From Bdellovibrionales bacterium (GTDB lineage Bacteria; Bdellovibrionota; Bdellovibrionia; Bdellovibrionales; UBA1609): a stretch of DNA of 50,864 nt. The translations under genes were made by a program, and so were the position numbers. Positions 22,745-48,165 of this stretch are shown here, one piece after another; the stretch's first letter is position 1; each line of letters starts with the position of its first letter. Where the stretch lies: assembly GCA_031412575.1 (NCBI GenBank), contig JANODG010000088.1:1-50864 (forward strand). Direction: 5' to 3'. The notes under the pieces were generated by a model, which was not told the DNA's origin, searched no databases, and was given only the letters and a program-made list of their open reading frames with translations.

Positions 22745-23416
22745 ATGAAAAAGTCGCCTCATGTTTTTTTACTTGAAGATAACAAAGAGCTTGGACTTTC
22801 TTTACAAGATAAGTTTACAGACTCCGGGTACACATCAAGTTGGTTCACTCATGTTGGCCAAGCAAAAACGTATCAAAATTTTCAAGACATTGATTTATTT
22901 ATATTGGATGTGGGTTTGCCCGATGGAACAGGTTTTGAATTTGCAGAGTGGTTAAAATCTCAAAAGGTAAAACAACCCATTATGTTTTTAACAGCGATGG
23001 GGCAGCCCGAAGATCGCTTAAAGGGTTATGAGCTTGGTGCAGAGGAATATATTCCAAAGCCGTTTTTATATAAAGAATTAGAAATGCGTATTAATCATGT
23101 GTTAGAAAATCACGCCAAGAATTTAATTTTCGAATTTAAAGATTTAGTGATTGATTTTGAATCCATGACTTTTAAATGGAGTAATGGCGAAATTATTTTT
23201 CCACAGTCTAAAGATCTTTTAATTTTAAAACTTTTAATTCAGAAATCGCCACAAGTTATTTCTCGGGACGAGATCTTAAATGAAGTGTGGGGAATGGATG
23301 ATTTTCCTACGGAAAGAACTGTGGATAATAGCATTGTGAGGTTGAGGCAGAGTTTGAAGGAGCATCAAGGGTGTTTGAAGTCGGTGCGTGGGATGGGGTA
23401 TCAATGGCTGGTTTGA
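22745..23416 (+). CDS. OmpR-family response regulator
   Basis: Receiver domain with LFILDVGLPDG and a winged-helix C-terminus (...VRLRQSL...VRGMGYQW). A 2-nt gap follows the kinase gene. Confidence 0.9.
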   Translation: MKKSPHVFLLEDNKELGLSLQDKFTDSGYTSSWFTHVGQAKTYQNFQDIDLFILDVGLPDGTGFEFAEWLKSQKVKQPIMFLTAMGQPEDRLKGYELGAEEYIPKPFLYKELEMRINHVLENHAKNLIFEFKDLVIDFESMTFKWSNGEIIFPQSKDLLILKLLIQKSPQVISRDEILNEVWGMDDFPTERTVDNSIVRLRQSLKEHQGCLKSVRGMGYQWLV

Positions 23417-23581
23417 TTTTTTGGTATCTTATTTTAATGAAAGTTTAATCTTCTTAAATTCCGACACGCCCATCCATGGGCTCTGCGCGAGCCGCCTGCG
23501 GCGGGCGCATCCTGCTCTCGCGAGGTCGGAATTTAAGAAGATTAAACTTTCATTAAAATAAGATTCCAAAAAATCAAACCA
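23409..23581. repeat. 173-bp near-perfect palindrome: 57-bp AT-rich arms (one mismatch) around a 59-bp GC-rich core
   Basis: Arm 23409-23465 is the reverse complement of 23525-23581, apart from T/A at one position. The core 23466-23524 contains CCGCC-TGC-GGCGG. On the minus strand this is the same GCCCGC-NGCA-GGCGG hairpin seen in the repeat family below. The left arm covers the last codons and stop of the response regulator. Confidence 0.9.
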
Positions 23582-23810
23582 AACGTGTGTATGGTTTATA
23601 CTTAGGATTTATTTTTTTATTAATTGTGTAGGTGAGTAGGATTTTAAAATAAGTAACTAAATATGTAAGTAAGTAAGTTAGTAAAAATTTAATTAATTGT
23701 TTAAAAATTTATTGGTTTTTTTTATTTATTAAAAAGATATTTTTTTAAAATTATTTGAAAATTTAAGGATATTAAAGCCTTGTTTTTGTGTGTTTAAGAA
23801 GGGAAGTCAG

Positions 23811-24830
23811 ATGAATTTGAAGTTTCAGGGTGCGTTGAGGAATGAGGTGCAGAAGTGTCCGCCGATTTGGTTTATGAGGCAGGCAGGAAGATATCATGGG
23901 CATTATCAGAATTTGAGATCGAAGCATTCCTTTATGGATTTGTGTAAGGTGCCGGAGTTGGCTTGCGAAGTGGCTTTGGGTCCTATTATGGATTTTGATT
24001 TTGATGTTTCTATTTTGTTTTCGGATTTACTTTTTCCGCTAGAAGCTATGGGTATGGGGCTTGATTATAAGCCAGGTCCTGTATTGGGATGGCATTTAAA
24101 TGCTTCGAACATACATAAATTAAAATCTGTTGAAGATTCTTTGGCTGGTGTTCAATTTCAAAAAGAGGCCGTCGTGTTAACTCGAAGAGCTTTACCTAAA
24201 GATAAAAGTCTTGTGGGTTTTGTCGGAGGGCCTTGGACTTTATTTAGTTATGCGGTCGAAGGAAGTCATAAAGATGGTTTAAAACAAACTAAAAAGTCTT
24301 TGGCCTTATTTAATCCTTTTTGTGAAAAATTACTTCCGCTTTTGATTGAAAACATCAAACTGCAATTAGCGGGTGGGGTTGAAGTGGTTATGATGTTTGA
24401 TACGTCTGTGGGTGAAATTAGCCCCTATATTTTTAAAGCTTACATTGAACCTGTGCTTTTAGGTTTAGCTCAAAAGTTTCCAGGTAAGTTAGGGTATTAC
24501 TCTAAAGGCACGACTGAGGCGCATTATTCGGTAGAACTAAAAAATGCGCCATGGGCTGGATTTGGATTTGATCACCGGTGGGATTTACCGAAGTGGTTAA
24601 AGACTGAAAAAAAGAAAGGTTTTGTTCAGGGTAATTTTGATCAGTTGTTTTTATTTCAAGATTTTTCTGACTTTAAAAAAACTTTGGACCAATATTTAAA
24701 AACTTACCAAGATATTTCTGTAGAGGCCCGTGCCGGATGGGTGTGTGCTTTAGGGCACGGTGTCCTTCCTGAAACTCCAGAAAAAAACGTTAAATACTTT
24801 GTCGAGCGCGTTAGAGAGGTGCTTTCATGA
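23811..24830 (+). CDS. hemE: uroporphyrinogen decarboxylase
   Basis: PPIWFMRQAGRY signature. The start is set at the ATG at 23811 (GGGAAG RBS). The ORF is open from the GTG at 23790. Confidence 0.92.
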   Translation: MNLKFQGALRNEVQKCPPIWFMRQAGRYHGHYQNLRSKHSFMDLCKVPELACEVALGPIMDFDFDVSILFSDLLFPLEAMGMGLDYKPGPVLGWHLNASNIHKLKSVEDSLAGVQFQKEAVVLTRRALPKDKSLVGFVGGPWTLFSYAVEGSHKDGLKQTKKSLALFNPFCEKLLPLLIENIKLQLAGGVEVVMMFDTSVGEISPYIFKAYIEPVLLGLAQKFPGKLGYYSKGTTEAHYSVELKNAPWAGFGFDHRWDLPKWLKTEKKKGFVQGNFDQLFLFQDFSDFKKTLDQYLKTYQDISVEARAGWVCALGHGVLPETPEKNVKYFVERVREVLS

Positions 24831-26170
24831 TTGATCTATTAAGTAAGTACGATGTTCCCGTACCACGTTACACTAGCTATCCTACAGTGCCTTACTGGCA
24901 AGATAACCCGACATCCAAAGAATGGCTTTCTTCCTTAGAAAAACATTTTTCTAAAGACGATGCCACTTGGTCTATGTACTTACACATTCCTTTTTGTGAA
25001 ACCTTATGTACCTTTTGTGGCTGTAACACCATCATTACAAAAGATCATAAACGTGAACATCCTTACGTAACTCACTTGTTATCGGAATGGAAAATCTATT
25101 TAGATAAAATGCCGTATATTAAAGATAAAGAATTAAAAGAGATCCACTTAGGTGGAGGAACTCCAACTTTTTTAAGTTCTGAAAATTTAGTTTTTTTGAT
25201 GACCAATCTTTTTAAAGATATTAAAAAATCCAAAGACTTTGAAGCTTCCATCGAAGTGGACCCAAGACGCACAACTTCTGATCAGCTTAAGGCCCTATAT
25301 GACATTGGGTTTCGCAGGGTCAGTATGGGTGTACAGGATTTTGATCCTGAAGTGCAACGCCTAGTAAACCGTATACAGCCAGAAAGTATGACTTTGAATT
25401 TAACCCAAAGAGCTAGGGCCATGGGTTACACTTCCGTCAATTATGATTTGATTTACGGTTTACCAAAACAAACCAAAGCAAGTATAAAGACACTTGCTGA
25501 AAAAACCTTAGAACATAAACCAGACCGCATAGCTTTATATTCTTTTGCCTTAGTGCCATGGATTAAACCTACGCATAGGCTTTACAAAGATGAAGATTTG
25601 CCAATGGGTTTAGAAAAGCGTGAGCTTTATGAAATCGCACGAACCATTTTACTTAAAGGTGGTTACAAAGAAATCGGAATGGATCACTTTGCATTGCCAA
25701 CGGATTCTTTATCGAAAGCTTTGCAAAGTAAAAAACTTCACAGAAATTTTATGGGTTACACTCATCACAGATCAGATATATTGTTGGGTTTAGGGGTAAG
25801 TTCGATTTCTGAAACTCCAGATTGTTTTCACCAAAATGAAAAAAAATATCAGATCTATCAAAGATTTATCGAGCAAGAACAAATTCCAACTCTTCGTGGG
25901 CATAAACTTTCTGATCAAGACCGAAAACGACGAGAACAGATTTTAAAACTCATGACCACTTGGGAAACTGTTTTAGATGATTTTAAACATGAAGAAGAAG
26001 TGAAAGTGTTTTTAAATGAACTGATTCAAGATGGTTTAGCTAAAGTCGAAAATCAAAAAATTATGGTGACAGAAAAAGGTCAGCCGTTTTTAAGAAACAT
26101 ATGCATGTCTTTAGATGAACGCTTGCGCTTAAATAAGCCAACTCAACAGGTGTTTTCAAAAGCGCTATGA
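24827..26170 (+). CDS. hemN: oxygen-independent coproporphyrinogen III oxidase (radical SAM)
   Basis: ATGA overlap with hemE. It has the HemN-specific PRYTSYPTVPYW motif and the radical-SAM motif CETLCTFCGC. Confidence 0.92.
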   Translation: MIDLLSKYDVPVPRYTSYPTVPYWQDNPTSKEWLSSLEKHFSKDDATWSMYLHIPFCETLCTFCGCNTIITKDHKREHPYVTHLLSEWKIYLDKMPYIKDKELKEIHLGGGTPTFLSSENLVFLMTNLFKDIKKSKDFEASIEVDPRRTTSDQLKALYDIGFRRVSMGVQDFDPEVQRLVNRIQPESMTLNLTQRARAMGYTSVNYDLIYGLPKQTKASIKTLAEKTLEHKPDRIALYSFALVPWIKPTHRLYKDEDLPMGLEKRELYEIARTILLKGGYKEIGMDHFALPTDSLSKALQSKKLHRNFMGYTHHRSDILLGLGVSSISETPDCFHQNEKKYQIYQRFIEQEQIPTLRGHKLSDQDRKRREQILKLMTTWETVLDDFKHEEEVKVFLNELIQDGLAKVENQKIMVTEKGQPFLRNICMSLDERLRLNKPTQQVFSKAL

Positions 26171-27372
26171 AGAAAGTCGCCATCATCGGATTTGGATTTT
26201 CTGGACTGTCTGCAGCTTGGGCTTTTGCAAGGCGCGGGCATGATGTGGAAGTTTTTGAAAAAGTATCAAAAATTGGTGGAATACTTCAAACTGAAAACTC
26301 TGAGTTTGGGATTATAGAAACCGCCGCCAATGCTATTTTACGCTCGGAAAACGTAAGCGTGATGGCTAAGGACTTCGATATCACCTGGGCTGAGCGAAAG
26401 AAATCTGCTAAAGCTAAATGGGTATTCACAGATAAACCAAGACGCTGGCCACTGACTACGATTGAGACTTTAAAGTTCATAAACCCGATGTTTAAATTAG
26501 CTCTGGGATCTGAAAGTATAAAACCAAAAAGTTTAGAGTCCGTCGCTAATTGGGGACAAAGGGTTTTTAAATCTCCAGTGTTTGTCGATCATCTTTTGGG
26601 TCCTGCACTTCAAGGAGTTTATGCAAATTCATCTGATCATCTTTCAGCCTCTTTATGTTTAAACACTTTTTTTGCCACCCAAAAAATAAGACATGAAGGA
26701 TCACACGCACCAAAAAAAGGAATGTCAGACTTTTTTAATTCTGGATTAAAATTTTTAACGAAACATAATAATTTTAAATTAAATCTAAATTCTCAAATCA
26801 CAAATTATGAAAATTTAGATGCAGACATCATTTTAGACACGCGCCCAGACCCTATAAACGTAAATTATTTAAGTGTTTATTCACTAACATTATTTTTCAG
26901 AACAGAAGACCGCCCGAAGTTTCAAGGGTTCGGTTGCTTGTTTGCGAAATCTAAAAGCGTACTAGGAGTCTTATTCAACTCCGACATCTTCGAAGACCGC
27001 ACTAAAGAAGACCTTTTTAGTGAGACCTGGATTATCACGCCCGCTGCAGGCGGAAAAGTTCCAGCGAAGAGCGCAGGGCGTGCGCAGCCGCCCGAAGAGC
27101 GCTCGAGTGAACTAGACATGATCAAACACACCCTCGCTTTTCGCGAACAAGCCTTCGGCATAAAATCCGAACCTGTATTCTCGAAGCTCACTCATTGGCC
27201 ACAAGGTATTCCCAACTACAGCCTTCAACATGAGACTTTCTTACAGGATAAATTTAAATTTGAAACTTCGATGGGACAGACTAAGATATTCAAAATCGGA
27301 AACTACACGGGGCAAATTGGTCTCAATAAAATGTTAGAAGAAAATGTAAAATTAGCTCGTAAATTCAGCTGA
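26167..27372 (+). CDS. hemY: FAD-dependent protoporphyrinogen oxidase carrying an in-frame repeat-element insertion
   Basis: ATGA overlap with hemN. It has the dinucleotide-binding N-terminus KVAIIGFGFSGLSAAW...EVFEK and sits between hemN and hemH. Residues ~292-318 (AAGGKVPAKSAGRAQPPEERSSELD) are encoded by the GC-rich repeat. Confidence 0.72.
   Translation: MKKVAIIGFGFSGLSAAWAFARRGHDVEVFEKVSKIGGILQTENSEFGIIETAANAILRSENVSVMAKDFDITWAERKKSAKAKWVFTDKPRRWPLTTIETLKFINPMFKLALGSESIKPKSLESVANWGQRVFKSPVFVDHLLGPALQGVYANSSDHLSASLCLNTFFATQKIRHEGSHAPKKGMSDFFNSGLKFLTKHNNFKLNLNSQITNYENLDADIILDTRPDPINVNYLSVYSLTLFFRTEDRPKFQGFGCLFAKSKSVLGVLFNSDIFEDRTKEDLFSETWIITPAAGGKVPAKSAGRAQPPEERSSELDMIKHTLAFREQAFGIKSEPVFSKLTHWPQGIPNYSLQHETFLQDKFKFETSMGQTKIFKIGNYTGQIGLNKMLEENVKLARKFS
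27039..27118 (+). repeat. GC-rich multi-hairpin repeat, copy A (intragenic, in-frame in hemY)
   Basis: GCCCGCTGCAGGCGGAAAAGTTCCAGCGAA-GAGCGC-A-GGGCGTGCGCAGCCGCCC-GAA-GAGCGCTC-GAGTGAACTAGACA. It shares both terminal boxes and the central hairpin with copies B-F. Confidence 0.9.
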
Positions 27373-32674: not shown

Positions 32675-33718
32675 ATGATTCTAAAAAAGGTTCAATTCGC
32701 CATTAAAGCGATTTTAGCATGGGTTTGTCTATCAAGCTTAGCTTTTGCTAATAGTACCGATGACAATTTTTGGCGTGATTTTCTAGCTAAGCATTACCCG
32801 CGAATAAGCTCTCAGGAAGCTTCACGATGGCAGTCACAAACTATAGAGATTTTTAAGTCTCAGGGGATTAATCATAGTCATCTGTCAAAGATTTCTCAGA
32901 GTGATTATTTTAAATTGTGGAATATCGCTTATGAATCGGCCCAAAGACCAAAGTTTGAGGATTTAATATTAATTGTTGATTTCTGGATTTCTGAATTAGG
33001 CTTAAAGAGTCTGAATCAATTTCTTAATAATACAACTCATTCAAACCCTTACCATATTTTTACAATAAATTTGGAAGGGTGGATTGCGTTTCGTGATCTG
33101 CTTTTAAATATTGGTGTTTTCGATGAAGATCCTCGCTCTGATAGAAGTGTGCAAGCATTTTTACTTAGATTTAATTGGGCGGAAGGAATTGCCACCAGCA
33201 AAAAAATGACCCCTGAGTTTTGGAATGGATGGAAAGATGTTTTTTTAAGTCATAAAACTATGAAATCTCAAGTGACCAAGTCTTTTAGTGTTTCTTACTT
33301 AAGTGATTATGCCAATCAAGATTTGATTCAACGATTATATGTTTCGCTGCCTCAGGGCTTACTTACATTATCGCTAAACAATGCAGATCTTATTTCCTCT
33401 GATTTGCTCATAGATTTTATAAACTCCGAAGATAAAATCTTGAGATCTGGGTTTGATGCCACGATCGAAGATACTCTTCGAACTCTAAATCAGTTGGTCT
33501 TAGGCAATATAAAAATATCGGGCAGACAATTCTCTGCAAGCGTTGCTAAATCGGTTGTTGCGAAATTAGTCTTTAGGGTCATGCGAGACCCTAATATAAT
33601 AAAAAACGAACGATATTTAAAATATGTAATTAAAGAAATTCTTTCGGATTTAAAAGAAGAAAGACTTCTAGAATCCACTAGGAGCGCGGGTAGAATCTGC
33701 GGGGAATATCTTAAATAA
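32675..33718 (+). CDS. hypothetical secreted protein
   Basis: 347 aa with signal peptide ...LAFA/NS. No family recognised. Confidence 0.5.
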   Translation: MILKKVQFAIKAILAWVCLSSLAFANSTDDNFWRDFLAKHYPRISSQEASRWQSQTIEIFKSQGINHSHLSKISQSDYFKLWNIAYESAQRPKFEDLILIVDFWISELGLKSLNQFLNNTTHSNPYHIFTINLEGWIAFRDLLLNIGVFDEDPRSDRSVQAFLLRFNWAEGIATSKKMTPEFWNGWKDVFLSHKTMKSQVTKSFSVSYLSDYANQDLIQRLYVSLPQGLLTLSLNNADLISSDLLIDFINSEDKILRSGFDATIEDTLRTLNQLVLGNIKISGRQFSASVAKSVVAKLVFRVMRDPNIIKNERYLKYVIKEILSDLKEERLLESTRSAGRICGEYLK

Positions 33719-33720
33719 GC

Positions 33721-33784
33721 ACACCGAAGGTGGAAAAACCAATCCGCGTGAGCTAGACAGCGCCGTATTGCGGCAGCCGGATTG
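33721..33784 (+). repeat. GC-rich repeat, truncated/degenerate copy
   Basis: CACC-GAA-GGTG hairpin plus GAAAAACC, fused to AATCCGCGTGAGCTAGACAGCGCC (compare AATCCGAGTGAACTAGACAGC in copy F). CAATCCG/CGGATTG pairing flanks it. Confidence 0.6.
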
Positions 33785-33874
33785 AAAAAAGATTAGTCAC
33801 TTAAACCTCAAATCTAAGTGAAGGACAGTACGATTAGGGAATGAAAATTGCCTTAAGTTTAATGGAGGTACGTT

Positions 33875-34804
33875 ATGAACGACATTAAAATTCAAAGAAA
33901 TTTGAAGGGGACAATTAAGGGGTTAGTTGTTTTGTTGTTAACATTAAATTTTAGTTTTATAGCAAATGCAGGACTGGTGTGTCCAAATTCAATACTCCGT
34001 GATTCTGCTTACGGTATGAGTAATTCACAATTAGTTCGTTTCAAGTCCAACCTTACAGAAAACAGAAACCGCGGTGTTACAAGAAGCGAAAAAGTGACCC
34101 GTGTTAAGGAAGCTGTCGAACATAGGAACGGAAATCTAGGATTTCCTGTTGGACACGATTCTCAGTCAGTTGCTGAAGCTGCAGTTTGGGCTGCAGGTTG
34201 TACAGGAAATGATTTCAGTGTTTTTGCTGCGATACTTAGTGTTGAATCTGGATATTGCGGAGACCTAAGAGGTGGTGGAGCAGACTCTGGATGTTCACAG
34301 TTATCTGTAAGAAAAGGAGCATCAGTTCACGAACTAAAAAGTCAGTTAAACTTAAAAGGCGGCGACGGTAAAGCAAACCCTGACGTGACCCAAGCGGCAA
34401 AAGACATGGTGATGACGTGTTTAAATAATGATAAATCCCAGTATGATGCTTTTATGACTTTTTATAATCGTCCGTTCGAAGAAATCAAAACCGATTTAAG
34501 AAGTGGCCAAAATGTTTACTTCGATGTGCTTATGGGCGCGCTCTACTTAAAATTTGTGACTGCCTTAGCTGGTGGATACATTGTTCCAGGGGATTCTCCG
34601 GGTGGGATCGCAAGATACAACGGCGGTGGAGTTCCAAATTACCTAGGCAAAGTTCAAGGACTTAACCAAGGAGAAGGTCGCTTAGAACAAATTTCAGGTA
34701 CATGTTATGAAGACAAATTTACACCTAACGTACTAGGCGAAGCCTGCGGAACTATGGGACTTAAAGGAGAACTGTGCAACAGCGTAAGTGGGATAGAGAT
34801 ATAG
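33875..34804 (+). CDS. secreted lytic-transglycosylase-like (SLT/lysozyme-like) protein
   Basis: 309 aa with a signal peptide. AILSVESGY (catalytic Glu-Ser), GCSQLS and ARYNGGG resemble the SLT motifs ES / GLMQ / AYNxG. The TAG stop abuts repeat copy B. Confidence 0.5.
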   Translation: MNDIKIQRNLKGTIKGLVVLLLTLNFSFIANAGLVCPNSILRDSAYGMSNSQLVRFKSNLTENRNRGVTRSEKVTRVKEAVEHRNGNLGFPVGHDSQSVAEAAVWAAGCTGNDFSVFAAILSVESGYCGDLRGGGADSGCSQLSVRKGASVHELKSQLNLKGGDGKANPDVTQAAKDMVMTCLNNDKSQYDAFMTFYNRPFEEIKTDLRSGQNVYFDVLMGALYLKFVTALAGGYIVPGDSPGGIARYNGGGVPNYLGKVQGLNQGEGRLEQISGTCYEDKFTPNVLGEACGTMGLKGELCNSVSGIEI

Positions 34805-34955
34805 CGCCCCACGCAGTGGGAAAAGTTCCGCCCGCTGCAGGCGGAAAAGTTCCAGCGAGCACTTGGGGGCCACTGCATGCATCGCTGTACAGCTCTCGCA
34901 TGTGGCCGTCGTGCGAAGCCGCCCAAAAGTGTGCGAGTGAACTAGACAGCGCAAC
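34805..34955 (+). repeat. GC-rich multi-hairpin repeat, copy B (long form with extra internal hairpin)
   Basis: Two [stem-GCA-stem]-GAAAAGTTCC boxes (CCCAC-GCA-GTGGG and CCGC-TGCAG-GCGG), then AGCGAG, the outer stem CACTT/AAGTG, an extra GGCCAC...GTGGCC hairpin, and GAGTGAACTAGACAGCGCAAC. Confidence 0.9.
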
Positions 34956-35877
34956 AAAAACAACTAACTATAATCTTAAAAAGATTATAGTTAGTTGTTT
35001 TTATTCACTCATCCTTCTCCTCAACCTCACATCCTGCAGCAAAGACCACACTTACATCAACGCCCCAAACCCAGACCCAAACTCTAGCTACCAAACCGGC
35101 CCCACATGGAATCGCGAAAAATTAATCCTAACCACAAATCTACCATTTCAAATTTTAAACATGAACCGTGCTTATAAGGGTGACGTGGGCGTCGGCGTTT
35201 ACTTAGGGGAATTTAAGGGAAAACACATTGGCATGACGGCGGCCCACCTTTACCCAGATCTGACATCTTGCAAAGACGAAGTTTCTTTCTTAATTCAAGA
35301 TCAAGAACAATTTCATTACTACCCTTGCGACGGGTGGAGTTTCACACTTAAAGATAACGACATTATGTTTTTTGAAATCAGCATTCAATCCGCAGACATA
35401 AACTTATTGTCCCCAGTGAACGTATCAAAAAATCCCACATCAATTAATCAGCAGCTGAAACTTATAACCTTTGAACGAAATTTCGAAGATCAGACAGTTG
35501 AACTTTATTCCGATTCAAGCACCGAATGTAAAACATTAAGCAATGAAGCTAAGCAGATCGCCGATCCTGATATCAGCGACGACCGTATGATCACCTCGTG
35601 GTCAATGGCCATGGGCTGTGATTCGAGGCACGGGGATTCGGGTGCCCCTGTTTACAATGAAGTCCAGCAATTAGTAGGTCTTCTTTGGACGGGTAAATAT
35701 CCTAAAAATCAATCCAGCCAAAGTTTTAGTTCTTTAACTGAAACTCAACTGTGGGAAGACTATAATTATTTTGTTCCCGTTGAAAAAATCAAAGAAGAAC
35801 TTGGGAAATTAATGGTTAGCTCTCAAGTGAAAACTTCCGACCAAAATACTTTATCCCAAATCTTTAACTCTTTTTAA
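34900..35877 (+). CDS. trypsin-like (S1) serine peptidase, probable lipoprotein; start uncertain
   Basis: The triad contexts are MTAAHLY (His), DNDIMFF (Asp) and GDSGAPVY (Ser), with a lipobox-like LLLNLTSC. The only in-frame ATG/GTG upstream of the signal peptide (34774, 34816, 34900) lie inside repeat copy B. Confidence 0.65.
   Translation: MWPSCEAAQKCASELDSATKTTNYNLKKIIVSCFYSLILLLNLTSCSKDHTYINAPNPDPNSSYQTGPTWNREKLILTTNLPFQILNMNRAYKGDVGVGVYLGEFKGKHIGMTAAHLYPDLTSCKDEVSFLIQDQEQFHYYPCDGWSFTLKDNDIMFFEISIQSADINLLSPVNVSKNPTSINQQLKLITFERNFEDQTVELYSDSSTECKTLSNEAKQIADPDISDDRMITSWSMAMGCDSRHGDSGAPVYNEVQQLVGLLWTGKYPKNQSSQSFSSLTETQLWEDYNYFVPVEKIKEELGKLMVSSQVKTSDQNTLSQIFNSF
34956..35007. terminator. very strong hairpin: perfect 22-bp stem, 3-nt loop, A5/T5 flanks (bidirectional terminator-like)
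   Basis: AAAAACAACTAACTATAATCTT (34956-34977) is the exact reverse complement of 34981-35002. The right arm also encodes KKIIVSCF of the downstream ORF. Confidence 0.75.
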
Positions 35878-36147
35878 AAATTCAGACTTAGTCATGAGGT
35901 TCACTGACTCGGTTGTTGGGTCGAAAACAATATGAATTTCTTTTTTATTAAGTTGCCTTTGAATCTGTTGGATCTTTAAATCCAGACTGGCTTCGAAGTT
36001 CCCGTAGTCCGTGCCTTCTCGCTGAATGAATTCCTCGATGATCGATTGAAGGATCTCGCTTGATAACTGCTCGGGCTTGATTTCAATTGGATTACTATCT
36101 GAATCATTTGTTTTTTCTTCATCAAAAATATTTTCGTTAGTCATCAT
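35851..36147 (-). CDS. YheU-family (UPF0270) protein
   Basis: 98 aa. LQSIIEEFIQREGTDYG matches the YheU signature (LIEEFVxREGTDYG). It overlaps the convergent protease gene by 27 nt. Confidence 0.7.
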   Translation of the reverse strand: MMTNENIFDEEKTNDSDSNPIEIKPEQLSSEILQSIIEEFIQREGTDYGNFEASLDLKIQQIQRQLNKKEIHIVFDPTTESVNLMTKSEFLKRVKDLG

Positions 36148-36384
36148 TAACTATCCCTAGCATAGTGTGTAATCTAAACAGTAGAACTTAGTATAAATAG
36201 CCATAAGCATAATTTAGGCCTTAAGTTTTTTAAATTTAAAAGTGCCTCAAAAAGACAGTCTTGTGTTAAAAGTAACCATTTATATTTGTGATGCAAACTT
36301 AAGTTCTCTATATCATAGCATTAAATGGCATGTTTAGTGCTGATAATAAACGGTCTAATAGTTTATAAAATCTAAGGAGTTAAA

Positions 36385-38274: not shown

Positions 38275-38422
38275 TTGAACATAAGCTTAAGGCTTCGACG
38301 AACGTCTAGACTGAATTAATAATTATTTAATAAAATTTATCCAAATCAAAAATATCAACTCTGTAAGTTTAAGAATTAGAATTAAATTTTTATGTTTGAT
38401 CTTTTTATGTCGATATAAAACC

Positions 38423-40483
38423 ATGAGCCAATCCGCACTACAAAAAAATGAAGCCGAAGTCATTGAAGATCAAATTTTAAACCCGGAAGAGGAATCTGCC
38501 CAAATTGCAAATTTTGGTTTGGAAAAACCGGCAGGTCAAACTTCCAATAATAATCCAGAAAATCCCTCTGAAGCTTTTTTAACTTTTTTAAATCTTTACG
38601 AAAAAGATAAAAAAGAGGGGATTCCAAATTCTAAAACTGACATTGATGATCTAAATTCCAAGGAGCTTTTTTTAAATGATGTGGCCAGCCAACTTAAATC
38701 AGAATTTATTGGTCTAGATCAACAAATTGATAAAATCATAAATACATTACGTCCTTGGTATTTAATCCCTAAATCTTTAAATAAGCCCGTAATTTTATCT
38801 TTGTGGGGGATGTCTGGTGTTGGTAAAACAAGTTTGGTTTATCGCTTGGTTGAAAAATTAAATTTCGAAAGTACTTTTTTTAAATATGATTTGGGTAAAA
38901 TTTCTGATGTTCAAAGCGGAATGGGATATCATCTTTCATATTTTGCTAATCGCCAAAGTGTTTTATTCTTTGATGAAGTTCAAATGGCCAGAACCTTAGA
39001 TGCTGTAGGGCATGATATTGATCGCCCCCAACTTCGTGATTTCTGGACTTTATTAGACACGGGAATGCTTCCTATTTTATTCACTGAAATTGTTAGAATG
39101 AGAAACGACATCAAAAGCAGATATCAAGGTTTTGTCGCGAATCCTTATGGGCCTGAACTTTTAATGACAGATTATGATTTTGATTATTTAGCACCGGTCT
39201 TAGGGTTAAGCCGGGACTATAATACGCTTTTAAAAAAGTGTGTTGTCGACGACACCAATCGTTTGATGAATTGGATCATTAACGAAATAGAAAAAAAGAT
39301 TTCAAAAAACGTTTATGAAGATCACACCAAGGCTTTAATCATTTTAGCAGGTAACATTGACGAAGCGTATTCGCAGTTGATGACGGTAGAGCCTGATGAG
39401 TTTACGGCCGAAGAGCTTAAAGAAAATTTGAACACTGTGACGCCTACAAAAATTAAAAAGGGTTTACTGACTCGATTTAGAACCGAGCAAGTCGCAAGAA
39501 TGGGGACTTCTTTAATATTGTTTCCCACACCTTCAGAAAGTTCGTATCAAGGAATTATTAAGCAAAAGCTTTCTAGAATTGAAAACAAAATCAAAAAGGA
39601 TTTTGTTTTTGAATTTAAATTCGAACAATCAGTGCACGATATGATTTATAAAAAGGGTGTCATTCCCACTCAAGGTGTCCGCCCCATTTTATCTATGATC
39701 TCTGAACAGGTGGAATCTAGATTACCAACTTGGATTGTTGAAAGTGCAAAAAATGGATTTTCAGAATACAGCGTGAACTTCGACGGAGCTAAAAATGCTT
39801 TTACAATCAGTCACAAAAATAAAACCATATTTACAGATGTGCTATTAACGGAAATTGAAAGTATCAAAATTAAAATTCCTGATGCTAAATTCATTGAATA
39901 CTTAGCGATACACGAAGCTGCACATTTGGTTGTAGGGATTAGCTTAATGGGGATGTTGCCTCAACGAATAATTTTTAAAGAAAGTTTTGCTGGAAATGTT
40001 ATGCCTCAGGTCAGATTTAGACCTACATCCCTTTTAACTGCAAAAATTTCCATGGATTTTGTCGCAATGAACTTAGCGGGCTATGCGGCTGAAATTAAAA
40101 AGTACGGTAAGGAAGGTTTAAGTTCAGGGGCAACTATGGATCTTAAATCTGCAACAGGTTTAGTATCCCAAATGATCATGGAAATGGGTATGGGATCGCA
40201 CATAGGTGTCACACTGCCGCACCCAGATCTGGTTCACAACATCAAATCGATGCAAGCGGCCGACGACGAAGCCAAAGAAAAACTTCTTAAACAGGCCTAC
40301 GTGACTGCAGAACAAGAACTTAAAACACAATCCTTGTTTTATGATCACGTTGTTGAAGAACTAAAAACAAAACACTGTTTACCTCAAGAGCGCTTAGCCG
40401 AATTGCTGTTCAAACACTTCGAAGCCACAGACGAAGAAAAAGTAAATATCGTCAATCGTAAAAACCACAAGTATATGGATTAA
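38423..40483 (+). CDS. soluble AAA+/P-loop ATPase fused to an FtsH-type (M41) zinc-metallopeptidase domain
   Basis: Walker A is GMSGVGKTS and Walker B is VLFFDEVQ. The C-terminal AIHEAAHLVVG (HEXXH) ...NLAGYAAEIKKYG...SGATMDLKSATGLVSQMIMEMGMG parallels the FtsH protease domain. The N-terminus has no TM helix. The start is set at MSQSAL. Confidence 0.78.
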   Translation: MSQSALQKNEAEVIEDQILNPEEESAQIANFGLEKPAGQTSNNNPENPSEAFLTFLNLYEKDKKEGIPNSKTDIDDLNSKELFLNDVASQLKSEFIGLDQQIDKIINTLRPWYLIPKSLNKPVILSLWGMSGVGKTSLVYRLVEKLNFESTFFKYDLGKISDVQSGMGYHLSYFANRQSVLFFDEVQMARTLDAVGHDIDRPQLRDFWTLLDTGMLPILFTEIVRMRNDIKSRYQGFVANPYGPELLMTDYDFDYLAPVLGLSRDYNTLLKKCVVDDTNRLMNWIINEIEKKISKNVYEDHTKALIILAGNIDEAYSQLMTVEPDEFTAEELKENLNTVTPTKIKKGLLTRFRTEQVARMGTSLILFPTPSESSYQGIIKQKLSRIENKIKKDFVFEFKFEQSVHDMIYKKGVIPTQGVRPILSMISEQVESRLPTWIVESAKNGFSEYSVNFDGAKNAFTISHKNKTIFTDVLLTEIESIKIKIPDAKFIEYLAIHEAAHLVVGISLMGMLPQRIIFKESFAGNVMPQVRFRPTSLLTAKISMDFVAMNLAGYAAEIKKYGKEGLSSGATMDLKSATGLVSQMIMEMGMGSHIGVTLPHPDLVHNIKSMQAADDEAKEKLLKQAYVTAEQELKTQSLFYDHVVEELKTKHCLPQERLAELLFKHFEATDEEKVNIVNRKNHKYMD

Positions 40484-40484
40484 A

Positions 40485-40599
40485 GCCCGCAGAAGGAAAA
40501 GTTCCGCCCGCGGCAGGCGGAAAAGTTCCAGCGAGTTGGCCTTAAGGGCGTGCGAAGCCGCCCTAAAGGAAGGCCAACGAGTGAACTAGACAGCGCAAC
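40485..40599 (+). repeat. GC-rich multi-hairpin repeat, copy C (archetypal)
   Basis: GCCCGCAGAAGGAAAAGTTCC-GCCCGCGGCAGGCGGAAAAGTTCC-AGCGAG-TTGGCCTT-AA-GGGCGTGCGAAGCCGCCC-TAAAGG-AAGGCCAA-C-GAGTGAACTAGACAGCGCAAC. It begins 1 nt after the TAA stop of the upstream gene. Confidence 0.92.
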
Positions 40600-40723
40600 A
40601 ACTACCAACTTCCACTCAACATGTTAAATAGTTCAACAGCTCCTATCGCTCATAAATCACTAAATCCCTTGCTGTCTTGGCATAAACAATGCTTAGTTAA
40701 TCCTGATCCTAGAGGGCGATTCA

Positions 40724-42262
40724 ATGTACGTACGGACATTTCGATTTTTACTTTTCTGGACACTAAGTCATTTCTTTGTCTTTGCGACGTCTTGGGGTAA
40801 TTCCGAAAGTATTCACATTTCCTTTGCAGGCTGCAGACAATTTCAGGTTAAAGGTGAACTTCCATCAAGTTTAGGGGATCAAATCGTGATGGCGTCTTCC
40901 TTAAAAGTTGATGAGCGTTGGATCAAGGACTTAGAGTCAGTTTTCCTTCAACATAATCAAAATTCCGCTCACACTTTAGATCATATATTAAGCTCTCCAG
41001 CTTTCTTTCATTATCAAGCAGTCCCTTTTAATCTGTCGATGATTAATAGCTCAACCCAAGAAGCCTCAATCCATGGATCTTTTGAGTTAAACTTTAGAGC
41101 CAGTGATTTCGCTTTTGCAAAGAAAAATAATTTTATCTGGGTTAGATCAAAGGATTTTAATTTTTTAGTGCTGATCACTCCAGGCACCGATGCTTGTGAT
41201 AAAATTAGTTTTAAGGTTCAGTCGGCCTTCACGAAAGATCTTCCAAAATTCCAAAAAGTGTTATTAGCGGCACCCACCCAAAAAATCTACAAAGCCAAAG
41301 ACATGCCTAAGGATCTTGAGCCTAAAAATTTTAAACAAGTGGCAGACTCCATGCGCAGTTATGCACAACAAAACTGTTCAGGCACTTTTATCTCAACCGA
41401 TGGTTATTACTTAACGGCATTGCACTGCATAGGTCCTGTGCTGGAAAAAATGAAAAAAGCCAAAGTGCTTTCGTGGCCATTAACTACAGAAGACCCCGGG
41501 CTTAACGCCAACTTTGCTGCACGAACAATCGTCCCAATCTTACCTTTGGATAAAAATATGAAAGTATCCAGCACAGCTGATCCTTCAATGTCCGCGAAGC
41601 TTATGGGCATTGAAGATGGTGAACCCTTAATTGCTGCGATAGGAACTTCGGGTTTTACGATTCGACCTTCGATCGAACACTGGTCCGAATATCCAGAATC
41701 TATGCGCCAATTTTTTATCCTTAATGATATGGACTGGGTCATTCTTAAGTACGACTTAAAAGATAAAAAAGTACCATGCACACGGCTGGCAAATTTAAAC
41801 TCGAACTTCGGTGATCCGCTGTGGGCAATGGGTTTTCCCGCCAAAGATATTTCACAACCATCCGAGTTCTCGAATAAAAATAGGGAGCTATTCGTTTCTT
41901 TAGGTCATCATCGAAAAGACTATACAGAACTTGCGCCTCATTTGGGATTTATTGGAGAGTACATTCATGACAGTGAGTACTTCATCAGTCATTTGGCGAC
42001 AAACCAAATGCTTAACAACGAACTTTCCATACTGTCAGACCATTTAGCCACCGCCGGCATGAGTGGTGGGCCATTGATCAACGAAGAGGGGGAATTGACG
42101 GGAGTGTTGTTCGAGGCTTCTCATCGTTATAAAACAGCCGAATATTCATCCCTGTACACCAACACTATGCTTCGCTCGATTCGATCCGACGTGATTCAAA
42201 AAGAAGTTATAAAACAAGTTGGCGACGTTAAGTCCAATGCTATTTTTAGCTGTGCTTTATAA
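40724..42262 (+). CDS. secreted trypsin-like (S1/Trypsin_2) serine peptidase with a ~200-aa N-terminal domain
   Basis: 512 aa with a signal peptide. The triad contexts are YYLTALHCIGP (His), DMDWVILKY (Asp) and TAGMSGGPLIN (Ser). Confidence 0.7.
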   Translation: MYVRTFRFLLFWTLSHFFVFATSWGNSESIHISFAGCRQFQVKGELPSSLGDQIVMASSLKVDERWIKDLESVFLQHNQNSAHTLDHILSSPAFFHYQAVPFNLSMINSSTQEASIHGSFELNFRASDFAFAKKNNFIWVRSKDFNFLVLITPGTDACDKISFKVQSAFTKDLPKFQKVLLAAPTQKIYKAKDMPKDLEPKNFKQVADSMRSYAQQNCSGTFISTDGYYLTALHCIGPVLEKMKKAKVLSWPLTTEDPGLNANFAARTIVPILPLDKNMKVSSTADPSMSAKLMGIEDGEPLIAAIGTSGFTIRPSIEHWSEYPESMRQFFILNDMDWVILKYDLKDKKVPCTRLANLNSNFGDPLWAMGFPAKDISQPSEFSNKNRELFVSLGHHRKDYTELAPHLGFIGEYIHDSEYFISHLATNQMLNNELSILSDHLATAGMSGGPLINEEGELTGVLFEASHRYKTAEYSSLYTNTMLRSIRSDVIQKEVIKQVGDVKSNAIFSCAL

Positions 42263-42449
42263 ATAGTGAACACAATTATAGGGCCGAAAAACGTCACCCA
42301 AATCCCTGATTGAATACCTTAACGACCAAATTTGACCAAAAAACCCATCAATTCAGCCTAATTACATATTTAATCTGGCTTAGAATTTGCCTTATTAGAC
42401 CGAGCTAAGTCGCAGAACGATAAGGTCCACTAAGCTCTAGGTTGGAGGC

Positions 42450-43625
42450 ATGAAAATGCAACATTTAATAGTAAAACGGATTTTAAAAGGCTCAATGCTT
42501 ACGTTTCTTTTTTCAGGCTTAATGGCTTGTAAAGAATCTGATGGATTTTCATCTGCAAAAGGTGGAATCGAAGGCTTTACACATGCACGTGTACAACCGG
42601 TTGTGTTGATACCATTAACTGAAGAAGCCGCTCAAGGCATTCAAGATCGTTTAGAAGCTTTAGCTAGTTTAGAAGAAAACATCGAACTTAAAGATGAACG
42701 CATTCAACAATTAGAGGACGAACTTGCTGAACGAGTAAGTGCTTTGGATGCAAAGATTCTTGAAAATCAAACTAAACTTTTAGCAATTCAATCACAAAAC
42801 GGCGACATCACTCCAAATGATGTTCGTAAGATGAATCAAGAGCGCGCGGAATTAAAAGCACAAGTTGACCAATTTACGGAAGAGTATTTAGAAAATGTTG
42901 AAAATTACAAAGCTGAATTCGAAACCATGATCGCAAGCTTTTCTGAATTAGTGACTGAGCTGTCGAAATATGAATCTACGGAAGAACTTGAAAGTTTTAG
43001 AACTTTGATTTTAGAGAAGTTAAAAGTTTTAGAAGCTGACCGTGATTTAGTTTTAGCGCGTATCTCAGAAAAAGAATCTTCAATTTCAGAACTTCAATCA
43101 CGAATTGCAGATCTTGAAGGCGACACAAGCCCGGAAGCTATATCTGAACTTAATGGATTAAAAGAAGACCTGGTTGAAGAGCAATCAAGTCTTGCAGAAG
43201 ACGCAGCAATAGCTGGTGCATTGAATGGTTTACTTGAATCTTCTAACGAAGTTTTAGCTCCAGTAACTCCAGTAATGCCAACAGGTGCAGCTTTGGATCA
43301 GCCATCGACGCCAGTAGCAGGTGATGTTCCGGTGATCAGTAACCAGTTAACTCCAGCAGCACAGGCTATGGAAATAAATCAACAGATCAAGGATCTTAAG
43401 GCTGCTAACGAAAGTTTAAACGCCATTCTTGCTTCGTTAAACGCTGAGATTAAACAGAAGGATGATGCGATTGCATTAAACAACACGACTCAATTACAAG
43501 TACAAAAGAGTGGTTTGTTAACAGAAAAATCAGAAACTTTGGAAGCCATCACAATGAATGAAGCTAAAATCGCTCCATTAAAAGTGGCATTAACTCGCCT
43601 CCAACGAATGATCGTTGGTATGTAG
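42450..43625 (+). CDS. coiled-coil lipoprotein
   Basis: 391 aa with lipobox FSGLMAC and a long Glu/Leu/Lys heptad-like region. The TAG stop abuts repeat copy D. Confidence 0.6.
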   Translation: MKMQHLIVKRILKGSMLTFLFSGLMACKESDGFSSAKGGIEGFTHARVQPVVLIPLTEEAAQGIQDRLEALASLEENIELKDERIQQLEDELAERVSALDAKILENQTKLLAIQSQNGDITPNDVRKMNQERAELKAQVDQFTEEYLENVENYKAEFETMIASFSELVTELSKYESTEELESFRTLILEKLKVLEADRDLVLARISEKESSISELQSRIADLEGDTSPEAISELNGLKEDLVEEQSSLAEDAAIAGALNGLLESSNEVLAPVTPVMPTGAALDQPSTPVAGDVPVISNQLTPAAQAMEINQQIKDLKAANESLNAILASLNAEIKQKDDAIALNNTTQLQVQKSGLLTEKSETLEAITMNEAKIAPLKVALTRLQRMIVGM

Positions 43626-43741
43626 CCCCACGCAGTAGGAAAAGTTCCGCTCCGCGCAGCGGGAAAAGTTCCAGCGAAGTGCGCAGGGCGTGCGCAGCCG
43701 CCCGAAAAGCGCACGAGTGAACTAGACATCGCCCCCGCGCA
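43625..43741 (+). repeat. GC-rich multi-hairpin repeat, copy D
   Basis: CCCCAC-GCA-GTAGG-AAAAGTTCC, CCGC-GCA-GCGG-GAAAAGTTCC, AGCGAA, the outer stem GTGCGC/GCGCAC around GGGCGTGCGCAGCCGCCC, then GAGTGAACTAGACA. Confidence 0.92.
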
Positions 43742-43747
43742 CAAAGC

Positions 43748-43781
43748 AAAAAAAAGACACCTATCCAGGTGTCTTTTTTTT
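43748..43781 (+). terminator. intrinsic terminator (A8-GACACCT-ATCC-AGGTGTC-T8)
   Basis: Perfect 7-bp GC-containing stem with a 4-nt loop and a T8 tail. It lies immediately after repeat copy D. Confidence 0.8.
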
Positions 43782-43973: not shown

Positions 43974-44438
43974 ATGATTAAATCTTTTTTTGTTGTTCTA
44001 TCGTTTGCATGTTTGGGAACGGCCGCACAAGCTGTTAACTTAGATGGTTACTATCAGACATATGGCTGCGTTAACTATAAAGGGCAAAATGATACTCTAT
44101 GGTCGACGGTTGTTTCAATTCACCTAAGTTCAGATGGGCAAATAGCTGTTTCTGATCAAGTATTTGAAGGTCCAGATTGTAAGACCGCATATTTTGCGAG
44201 CCACAAATACGGAACTTATTTAGTCACTGGCGATAATCTTCGATTCAGCATGAATAAATCTAATTTTATCGTTCTTTCAAATTCTGAAGAGCTAAAAGAT
44301 ATTCCATCAAGTAGCGACGACGTAATCAAAGAAGAAGGCTACTATCTTTTAGAAACCTCATTTACTGCAGCAACCCGCGATGTGTCTATAAACTACGGCG
44401 GATTCAGATTGGGTAAAATTGGAATTTCTAATAAGTAG
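43974..44438 (+). CDS. hypothetical secreted protein
   Basis: 154 aa with an AGGAGG RBS and signal peptide ...AAQA/VN. Confidence 0.55.
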   Translation: MIKSFFVVLSFACLGTAAQAVNLDGYYQTYGCVNYKGQNDTLWSTVVSIHLSSDGQIAVSDQVFEGPDCKTAYFASHKYGTYLVTGDNLRFSMNKSNFIVLSNSEELKDIPSSSDDVIKEEGYYLLETSFTAATRDVSINYGGFRLGKIGISNK

Positions 44439-44512: not shown

Positions 44513-44545
44513 AAAAAAAAAGACACCCTTACAGGTGCCTTTTTT
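44513..44545. terminator. bidirectional intrinsic terminator (A9-GACACC...GGTGCC-T6), a paralogue of the one at 43748
   Basis: The 7-bp stem is fully paired on the minus strand (one G-U pair) and serves rpsD. It has one mismatch on the plus strand. Confidence 0.7.
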
Positions 44546-47890: not shown

Positions 47891-47980
47891 AATTTTCTCC
47901 TTTTAGGTTTTGTTTATTAAAAGGACATTTATCAGCACGCTATAATTAACAGCAGTTAGTCTTGGTTAGTTTGTAAATAA

Positions 47981-48080
47981 GAAAAGTTCCAGCGAGCACT
48001 TGGGCGTGCGTACGGAAGTCCCAGCGAAGCGGACTGAACGGTAGCCGCCCGAAAAGCGCACGAGTGAACTAGACAGCGCC
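47981..48080 (+). repeat. GC-rich repeat, copy E (chimeric, with a nested 33-nt hairpin in the central loop)
   Basis: GAAAAGTTCCAGCGAG-CACTTGGGCGTGCG-[TACGGAAGTCCCAGCGAAGCGGACTGAACGGTA]-GCCGCCCGAAAAGCGCAC-GAGTGAACTAGACAGCGCC. The 5' half resembles copy B. The 3' half is identical to copy D. Confidence 0.85.
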
Positions 48081-48165
48081 GTCCGCAGGACGAAAAGTTC
48101 CAGCGAGGACTGGCAAGGGCGTGCGAAGCCGCCCGAGAAAGCCAATCCGAGTGAACTAGACAGCA
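48081..48165 (+). repeat. GC-rich repeat, copy F (tandem to E)
   Basis: GTCC-GCA-GGAC-GAAAAGTTCC-AGCGAG-GACTGGC-AA-GGGCGTGCGAAGCCGCCC-GAGAAA-GCCAATC-C-GAGTGAACTAGACAGC. Confidence 0.9.

Follow-up and report, generated by a model that had tools for sequence, protein, structure and literature searches.

Rickettsia palindromic elements (RPEs) are small palindromes that often lie in frame within unrelated housekeeping genes and also occur between genes (Ogata et al. 2000, as related in the review PMC10969869). REP, BIME and REPIN sequences, which go with RAYT transposases, are short, abundant, imperfect palindromes in which the stem varies and its foot is conserved in sequence (PMC3116915, PMC3337134). 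The MITEs of bacteria (miniature inverted-repeat transposable elements), such as Correia/NEMIS, ERIC, BOX and RUP, are of non-autonomous size and fold into long hairpins (PMC10969869). We describe here a repeat that resembles each of these in part. It lies in a stretch of 50,864 nucleotides from a Bdellovibrionales bacterium (assembly GCA_031412575.1, contig JANODG010000088.1, positions 1 to 50,864 of the forward strand; hereafter the window), where its copy B separates the gene of a conserved secreted protein from that of a serine protease. We consider it probable that copy B is a member of a family of interspersed repeats, undescribed so far, which are rich in GC, form hairpins and are akin to small non-autonomous mobile elements, and that this copy was inserted 3′ of a stop codon that already existed.

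The window is AT-rich (36.8% GC), and the islands that share sequence reach about 62% GC. Their 3′ box, GAGTGAACTAGACA, has six exact matches in the window and one with 2 mismatches, all on the plus strand, for a chance expectation of 0.22. A second string, CCCCACGCAGTRGGAAAAGTTCC, is found at 34807 and 43626, each time right behind the TAG that ends a long open reading frame (ORF; TAG at 34802-34804 and 43623-43625), and is expected 0 times by chance; a first-pass annotation of the window had rightly noticed that genes 33875-34804 and 42450-43625 end in the same ..TAG-C(G)CCCCACGCAGTRGGAAAAGTTCC. The sequence was confirmed by a contig assembled independently from the same population, which only one public run (X1) contains. 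The copies, and the parts of copy B with its upstream gene, are as follows.

27038-27118, plus strand: copy A, in frame within a HemY-like oxidase (ORF 26167-27372).
33719-33790, plus strand: copy F, degenerate, right behind the TAA of gene 32675-33718 and under the covariance-model threshold.
33875-34804, plus strand: upstream gene, a conserved secreted protein of 309 aa with no Pfam match, TAG stop at 34802-34804.
34805-34950, plus strand: copy B, matched by the covariance model over 34841-34950 (E = 7.8e-8).
34805-34829, plus strand: first small-hairpin module of copy B, CCCAC-GCA-GTGGG followed by GAAAAGTTCC, holding the in-frame GTG 34816.
34830-34858, plus strand: second small-hairpin module of copy B and its 5′ box GAAAAGTTCCAGCGA (34844-34858).
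34859-34933, plus strand: variable stem region of copy B, enlarged by a nested hairpin insert at about 34867-34907 (GGCCAC..GTGGCC) that bears ATG 34900.
34934-34948, plus strand: 3′ box of copy B, CGAGTGAACTAGACA, in which TGA and TAG shut two frames and the third reads S-E-L-D.
40484-40597, plus strand: copy C, right behind the TAA of an FtsH-like gene, at a site that is empty in the relative L025.
43626-43733, plus strand: copy D, right behind the TAG of 42450-43625 and upstream of a canonical terminator (43750-43781).
47978-48165, plus strand: tandem copies E1 and E2, antisense to both flanking genes, with a nested mini-hairpin in the E1 loop.

A census of the window and 24 related loci (designated by L numbers below) yielded 51 3′ boxes, L028-L030 being left out as chance matches. 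A unit is made of one or more optional small hairpins (NNNN-GCA-NNNN followed by GAAAAGTTCC), the 5′ box, a variable stem P2, an inner hairpin P3 and the 3′ box (C)GAGTGAACTAGACA. Copies measure 45-146 nt, with minimal units of 35-45 nt in L010 and L025, and nested hairpins occupy the loops of the copies E1, L008 and L015. Invariance is seen in GAAAAGTTCC and G(T)GAACTAGAC, and the boxes remain unchanged across genomes whose orthologous proteins share only 50-72% identity. Openings of the interiors are varied, with 33 distinct 8-mers among 44 copies. AGUUC in the 5′ box pairs with GAACU in the 3′ box, and each copy, taken singly, adopts the same P1-P1b-P2-P3 shape; set against the reverse-complemented 3′ box, the 5′ box agrees at 8 of 14 positions (AGTTC and CG), and these form helices P1 and P1b.

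Covariation was examined with a hand-seeded covariance model, used instead of MAFFT and RNAalifold, which misregistered the variable stem and gave partial detection. In the alignment of 42 copies, which is fitted to the model and hence favours the structure, 96.6% of the cells were paired and 11 of the 20 pairs had changed on both sides (83 cells). None of 500 shuffles reached this level of covariation, and controls in which the partner was slid were only 25-40% paired. Independently of this alignment, copy interiors fold better than dinucleotide shuffles (median z = −3.3). A second, smaller hairpin unit with box-like ends (GGAAGTCCCAGCGAAGCGGACTGAACGG) lies nested within the P3 loop in certain copies (window 47999-48040, L008, L015), and a similar solitary unit exists in L012. 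Behind their 3′ boxes, copies B and C have a common tail, GCGCAACAA, and both lie upstream of protease genes.

Compared with the described systems, the repeat is a new family, whose closest analogues are the RPEs for its in-frame intragenic copies and REP/BIME/REPIN for its hairpins, arrays and location in 3′ untranslated regions (UTRs). With the RPEs, as that review portrays them, it has in common in-frame insertion, a single frame, a single orientation and a short added peptide (PMC10969869). It differs from them by an unrelated host phylum, with no sequence relation known, by its shorter size and modular build (optional small hairpins, tandem arrays, nested copies), and by being GC-rich in an AT-rich genome, with intergenic copies tight against stop codons. 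Like the REPs and REPINs, it is a short, abundant, imperfect palindrome that forms clusters, is transcribed in 3′ UTRs and is a candidate for mobilisation as a single-stranded hairpin (PMC3116915, PMC3337134). Its location is not extragenic, however, as 13 of the 51 copies lie in genes, including mutS (twice), pheT, mpl and hemY; moreover, it has no invariant tetranucleotide of the GTAG type (GTAG is present in copy D only), and its arrays run mostly in direct orientation instead of forming inverted doublets. As with MITEs, presence varies between strains, and copies can fuse to ORFs and alter neighbouring expression signals (PMC10969869), but the terminal inverted repeat is weak (the 8 of 14 positions above), no target-site duplication was detected against relatives that are 25-50% diverged, and no parent insertion sequence is known.

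Three other identities were considered and rejected. Integron attC sites also have conserved boxes around a variable palindrome of conserved structure, right behind the stop of an ORF and in its orientation; however, the core sites RYYYAAC / GTTRRRY are absent from the invariant boxes on both strands, copies of the repeat also lie inside genes, and the same genes are found in the same synteny without the element in L023, L025 and L026, so the gene is not a cassette. An intrinsic terminator does not fit either, the stem being followed by GAGUGAACUAGACA and not by a U tract, and copy D having a separate canonical terminator 17 nt further on. In a CRISPR-like array, the ‘spacers’ would all be hairpins with the same loop and foot.

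We then asked what the insertions had done to the neighbouring genes. According to the first-pass annotation, the stop codons of 33875-34804 and 42450-43625 appeared to belong to the edge of the element, and a 3′ end seemed remodelled. This was contradicted by the orthologues: both genes terminate at the same codons where the repeat is missing, an outcome that the annotation itself had named as refuting. At site B the protein ends in ..GIEI* in the window, and in ..GISI* and ..GIAL* in the repeat-free L023 and L024. At site D the window and L025 both have ..IVGM*, and the repeat-free L026 and L027 ..VVGL*. The same was found at site C (FtsH-like, 38396-40483; ..YMD* in the window, ..YLD* at the empty site of L025) and at site F (32675-33718; ..EYLK* in the window, ..QYLR* in the repeat-free L023). 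Since repeat-free orthologues have the same stop, we judge that the stops were not donated by the repeat and are ancestral at all four gene ends compared (F, B, C, D), with the repeat beginning 0-1 nt behind them and the C-termini unchanged. TAR (TAA or TAG) is not part of the element, being absent ahead of 2 of the 3 intragenic copies that have a small hairpin (copy A and L002). Where the upstream ORF is co-oriented, the median gap is 3.5 nt from stop to element, against 84.5 nt from element to next gene.

The other end of the junction tells a different story, and here the first-pass annotation, which suggested that the repeat had also remodelled the 5′ end of the protease gene, is supported. 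The features concerned are these.

34774-35877, plus strand: ORF of an S1/trypsin-like serine protease, with the His, the GDSG serine motif and several Asp invariant across aligned homologues.
34978-35037, plus strand: codons of the lipoprotein signal KKIIVSCFYSLILLLNLTSC, with the lipobox LTSC and its Cys codon at 35035-35037.
34956-34977 and 34981-35002, plus strand: arms of an AT-rich hairpin with a perfect 22-bp stem (dG −25.1 kcal/mol, z = −10.4), with ATT 34984 and ATA 34987 in the 3′ arm.

The lipobox Cys aligns with that of the homologues, which are lipoproteins with an ATG and a signal of 18-36 aa. The same gene pair, with no repeat between, is present in L023 and L026 (the GFS_9291 population) and in L024; the ATG of the protease lies 5 nt past the upstream TAG in L023 and L026, and overlaps the TAA in L024 (TAATG). 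In the window this ancestral ATG is absent on both sides of copy B. The in-frame starts ahead of the KKIIVSCF codons are GTG 34774, GTG 34816 and ATG 34900, and no in-frame ATG, GTG or TTG exists from 34903 to these codons at 34978, so that the absence of a canonical start between repeat and signal was correctly reported by the earlier reading. These comparisons support a remodelled 5′ end, in which the ATG is gone and the repeat fills the junction. As read from the orthologues, the ancestral upstream gene and protease were joined stop-to-start, with an ordinary lipoprotein signal and an AT-rich hairpin in the first codons; such a junction would be a classic arrangement for translational coupling. 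We infer that the otherwise intact protease must now start within or upstream of the repeat.

The AT-rich hairpin, whose perfect 22 bp the first-pass annotation gave exactly, has equivalents of different sequence at the same codons: 20 bp in the repeat-free L023 (z = −8.2), 12 bp in L025 (z = −5.2) and a weak one in L024. As it is kept in repeat-free orthologues, it is ancestral and no product or part of the repeat. Its form, A-tract, stem and T-tract, is that of an AT-rich bidirectional terminator or attenuator. A promoter and terminator scan of 33700-36300 called nothing at the junction.

A closer relative, L025, is informative on the age of the change. Its contig covers the stretch from the protease to rpsD and begins inside a copy at site B, meaning that the insertion is older than the split between the window and L025. 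The sequence reads ..GAGCTAGACA TACT CGCCGCAGTGGGAAAAGCTCC AAGCCATAGTCTTCAAAAGATT ATG GCT.., with the ATG exactly at the position of ATA 34987; its partner in the hairpin is changed as well (CAT to TAT). ATA 34987 was confirmed in the X1 assembly, with no variant. In addition, the small-hairpin module of L025 contains an in-frame GTG, 12 codons ahead of its ATG and in the same frame as GTG 34816. A start at this GTG would give L025 a textbook lipoprotein signal of 23 residues, MGKAPSHSLQKIMAVAFLLTLSSC. The lysines just before the hydrophobic core are kept in all four orthologues, which suggests that translation begins upstream of them in each.

Copies inside genes show what the repeat does to a reading frame. 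The first-pass annotation had described an element open in one frame, with TGA and TAG traps in the other two. The 3′ box indeed reads GAG-TGA, ..AAC-TAG and AGT-GAA-CTA-GAC, so that TGA and TAG shut two of the three sense frames; the third is the one used in hemY, and is open through copies A, B, D, C and E2, not E1. In 46 distinct cores, this S-E-L-D frame is open in 30 and the other two sense frames never. The description does not extend to the interior, which is equally open in all three frames (30, 34 and 29 of the 46 cores once the 3′ box is set aside, and 53% in composition-matched shuffles). Core lengths are spread over all three residues modulo 3, with no phase preference. Stops have not been purged from one frame in particular: GC richness accounts for the openness and one conserved box for the closure, and no coding design is behind them.

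Because the 3′ box shuts two sense frames, copies that survive inside genes must be read in the third, and all 13 intragenic copies are in frame, in sense orientation and in the S-E-L-D frame. The protease ORF, read through copy B, counts among these genes. Copy A encodes 26 aa of the HemY-like oxidase where orthologues have 8-9 aa. In the metagenome-assembled genome (MAG) GFS_9291, intragenic copies interrupt mutS (two copies), a Mpl-type Mur ligase, pheT and an FtsL-like gene, adding peptides of the type ..KKSSSE..SELDS; the FtsL-like copy lies right behind the rsmH stop, as copy B does behind its upstream stop. The GFS_9291 loci with intragenic copies are:

L007, 2470-5061 and 6379-7875, both minus strand.
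L016, 1908-4484, minus strand.
L009, 3312-3713, plus strand.

The search gave no genuine antisense copy within a gene; ORFs that run antisense across copies are shadow ORFs. Two of the three antisense frames are usually open, hence frame does not account for this lack.

The family is so far known only from one narrow lineage of AT-rich Bdellovibrionales-like bacteria. Of 185,579 GTDB species genomes, only 2 matched the specific two-box pattern, namely the Bdellovibrionales MAGs GFS_9291 and JTS-AC215, and the repeat is also present in the window's own population and in L025, which was recovered via protein look-up. In JGI metagenome contigs, the exact pattern gave 0 matches, and a degenerate one gave 3 chance matches in the coding sequence of a GC-rich organism. 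Rfam gave no match at gathering thresholds over the whole window; in E-value mode, over 34700-35100, only generic sub-threshold hairpin matches appeared, on the AT hairpin. A tRNA/tmRNA scan found none, and the literature yielded no account of repeats of this sort from Bdellovibrio-like organisms.

Within this lineage, orthologous sites are filled in some genomes and empty in others. Site A is filled in the window and empty in L002 and L010; site B is filled in the window and empty in L023, L024 and L026; site C is filled in the window and empty in L025; site D has a full copy in the window, a minimal one in L025 and none in L026. The hemN/hemY junction is filled only in L010. Direct tandem arrays are found in L010, L012, L017, L019 and E1/E2, and one convergent pair in L003. 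Mobility of the repeat is suggested by these filled and empty sites, together with arrays and nesting. The repeat may be mobilised in trans, settling right behind stop codons and being tolerated elsewhere only in frame; it would move as a folded single strand, recognised through its invariant boxes. At the hemN/hemY junction, L010 carries 3.5 minimal units with a 49-nt period (755-900), and the two window genes overlap (ATGA). The start of hemY at this junction in L002 (reverse strand), ATGAAAAGTTCACG, matches the 5′-box core at 9 of 9 positions, and could be a remnant or a mimic of the target.

Several points weigh against a mobile element inserted behind an existing stop. Neither a transposase nor a target-site duplication nor a clean terminal inverted repeat came to light, so that the case for mobility is one of presence and absence. 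A tblastn search of 284 kb for Y1 transposases, with an IS200 TnpA query, gave no match, which is a weak negative, and these 284 kb showed no RAYT transposase. Sites A, B, C, D and F show no duplication against the empty-site relatives, which are 25-50% diverged, a divergence at which the exact borders of the insertion and the fate of the lost ATG are not reconstructable. In the population assembly contigs break at the repeat, with no repeat-free contig and no ATG variant, and among public runs one DNA metagenome only contains the locus. Either GTG start of the protease would put 55-69 residues before the lysines of the signal peptide, which is unusual for a lipoprotein. Finally, the bias to sense orientation and the placement behind stops could instead reflect a selected function at the RNA level.

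This last point leads to a different explanation, namely that the repeat is mainly a functional RNA kept by selection, as a stabiliser of 3′ UTRs or a modulator of termination or translational coupling, rather than a selfish mobile element. Stems that covary, flanked by single-stranded tails that are invariant, would suit such a role, as would copies lying 0-7 nt past stops and co-oriented with the majority of genes at about 20 of the 24 loci (the strand of the element tracks both gene direction and GC skew, which are inseparable here), and copy D, between stop and canonical terminator, must be transcribed. E. coli REPs within about 15 nt of a stop codon reportedly stall ribosomes and lower expression (Liang et al., Mol Cell 2015), which also speaks for this explanation. 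It accounts poorly for a quarter of the copies being inside the coding regions of housekeeping genes, for E1/E2 and the L008 copy being antisense to both neighbours, for copies gained and lost between close relatives at orthologous sites, and for nested and tandem copies; only a DNA metagenome among the public runs holds the locus, and an RNA function is in any case compatible with mobility. We regard it as possible but rather unlikely. Far less probable still is the idea that the element carries a terminal TAG of its own, supplying the stops and rebuilding the 3′ ends of 33875-34804 and 42450-43625. Copies B and D do share ATRTAG and an identical module, and at site D the relatives have TAA and the window TAG, so that overwriting of the triplet is conceivable. 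The small hairpin of tandem arrays comes after ..CTAGACAGC, which resembles the TAG|GC of solitary copies, and one true case of an element-donated stop exists: the CoA-transferase A ORF of L018 (4421-5179, plus strand) extends 18 codons into a copy and ends at the TGA of its 3′ box. Against this stand the identical stop position in repeat-free orthologues at four gene ends out of four, the unchanged C-termini, and the missing TAR before copy A and the L002 copy. An insertion of the repeat 3′ of stops already in place thus remains our preferred explanation.

For the protease, the candidate starts are the following.

34816, plus strand: GTG, 12 nt past the TAG, in the same module and frame as the GTG of L025, inside a 5-bp hairpin that the terminating ribosome would have melted; no Shine-Dalgarno (SD) sequence (−2.9 kcal/mol).
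34764-34776, plus strand: GTG 34774, the first in-frame start, 31 nt inside the upstream gene, with AAGGAG at 34764-34769 and a spacing of 4 nt, which is short.
34900, plus strand: ATG of the nested insert, a canonical codon with no SD.
34984-34989, plus strand: ATT/ATA, of which ATA is homologous to the ATG of L025; no SD, and buried in the hairpin.

We tentatively favour GTG 34816, which would be used by termination-reinitiation. A start at GTG 34774 is also conceivable, if somewhat doubtful, given its strong SD: the anti-SD duplex of its AAGGAG (−8.7 kcal/mol) is stronger than that of 75% of 36 window genes, and the homologous GTG is present in L026. ATG 34900 seems an unlikely start. In another explanation, translation begins at ATT 34984 or ATA 34987 independently of the repeat, as a non-canonical replacement of the relative's ATG, and the repeat is a mere upstream UTR. 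The ATG of L025 is indeed exactly at the ATA, which the independent assembly confirms, and both codons are permitted initiators in translation table 11; yet they have no SD, are buried in a hairpin of −25 kcal/mol, and would cost the signal peptide the lysines, immediately upstream, that are shared by all four orthologues. It appears improbable to us, and we would say the same of a protease that is not translated at all, the gene being a young pseudogene killed by the insertion. The lack of a canonical start near the signal peptide, the ATA in place of the relative's ATG and an unusual synonymous-site composition just 3′ of the repeat would be expected of a pseudogene, but the ORF of 300 codons is intact, with its His, GDSG and Asp residues, the frame is still open through the entire repeat, and L025 is filled at the same site, which makes the insertion old.

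Genes of an operon here abut stop-to-start, and an insertion behind a stop would then rebuild the initiation region of the next gene. This allows a broader proposal, which we put forward with much reserve: the family might home to the nucleotide immediately 3′ of TAR stops, in sense orientation, for instance through recognition of a short target by the folded strand in the manner of IS200/IS605 or RAYT, and might thereby routinely supply the next gene with a hairpin GTG melted by the terminating ribosome and, in some copies, with an AAGGAG-like tail. In L018, the ATG of subunit B lies 21 nt past the 3′ box, behind AAGGA, and in L019 GACAGCAAGGAG is followed by 7 nt and an ATG. The 3′ tail of the repeat may supply an SD sequence in these two loci.

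What the repeats really change can now be separated from what they only appear to change: here the stops are untouched, and a start codon has been lost and necessarily replaced. The tight link to stop codons might reveal how insertion takes place, or else an RNA function behind stops, either of them open to testing, and the family offers a second, independent case of the RPE phenomenon, selfish palindromes tolerated inside essential proteins, in a lineage of free-living predatory bacteria. A practical consequence is that gene callers will mis-start genes beside these repeats, and both the 367-aa call made here and the 286-aa call of P0003 are doubtful. In L024 (949-1032), the database start of P0003 (ATG 1030) leaves just 5 residues before the lipobox Cys, and with ATG 949, over the upstream TAA, the signal peptide is normal; the gene was probably called too short in the deposited record.

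At synonymous sites immediately 3′ of copy B (35035-35400), C is in strand-asymmetric excess, fading over some 400 nt. Of the 20 codons that come first after the lipobox Cys, 13 have C in third position in the window, versus 2 of 20 in the L025 orthologue (T there in 12 of 20). Over 35 copies, C makes up 25% of the first 30 nt downstream, against a background of 17.7%, and G is not raised. The excess is also seen 3′ of copies A, C and E2 and of the L007 copies.

Other features of the window were recorded. Copy C forms the left border of a 1.95-kb segment (40484-42430), with an extra trypsin-like gene (40724-42262), that the syntenic locus of L025 lacks. A palindromic A8-stem-T8 terminator, present twice (43750-43781 and 44514-44545), flanks a window-specific segment of 730 nt with a 154-aa ORF (43974-44438); L025 has one such terminator and no counterpart of this ORF. 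The intergenic stretch ahead of 23790-24830 contains an inverted repeat of 57 nt (23409-23581, 98% complementary, 59-nt spacer) that has no relation to the repeat family. Lastly, a lysine/alanine-rich tandem coding repeat of the histone H1 type (AAAAAAGTAAC.., 12-nt period) spans 786-1063, in ORF 786-1574.

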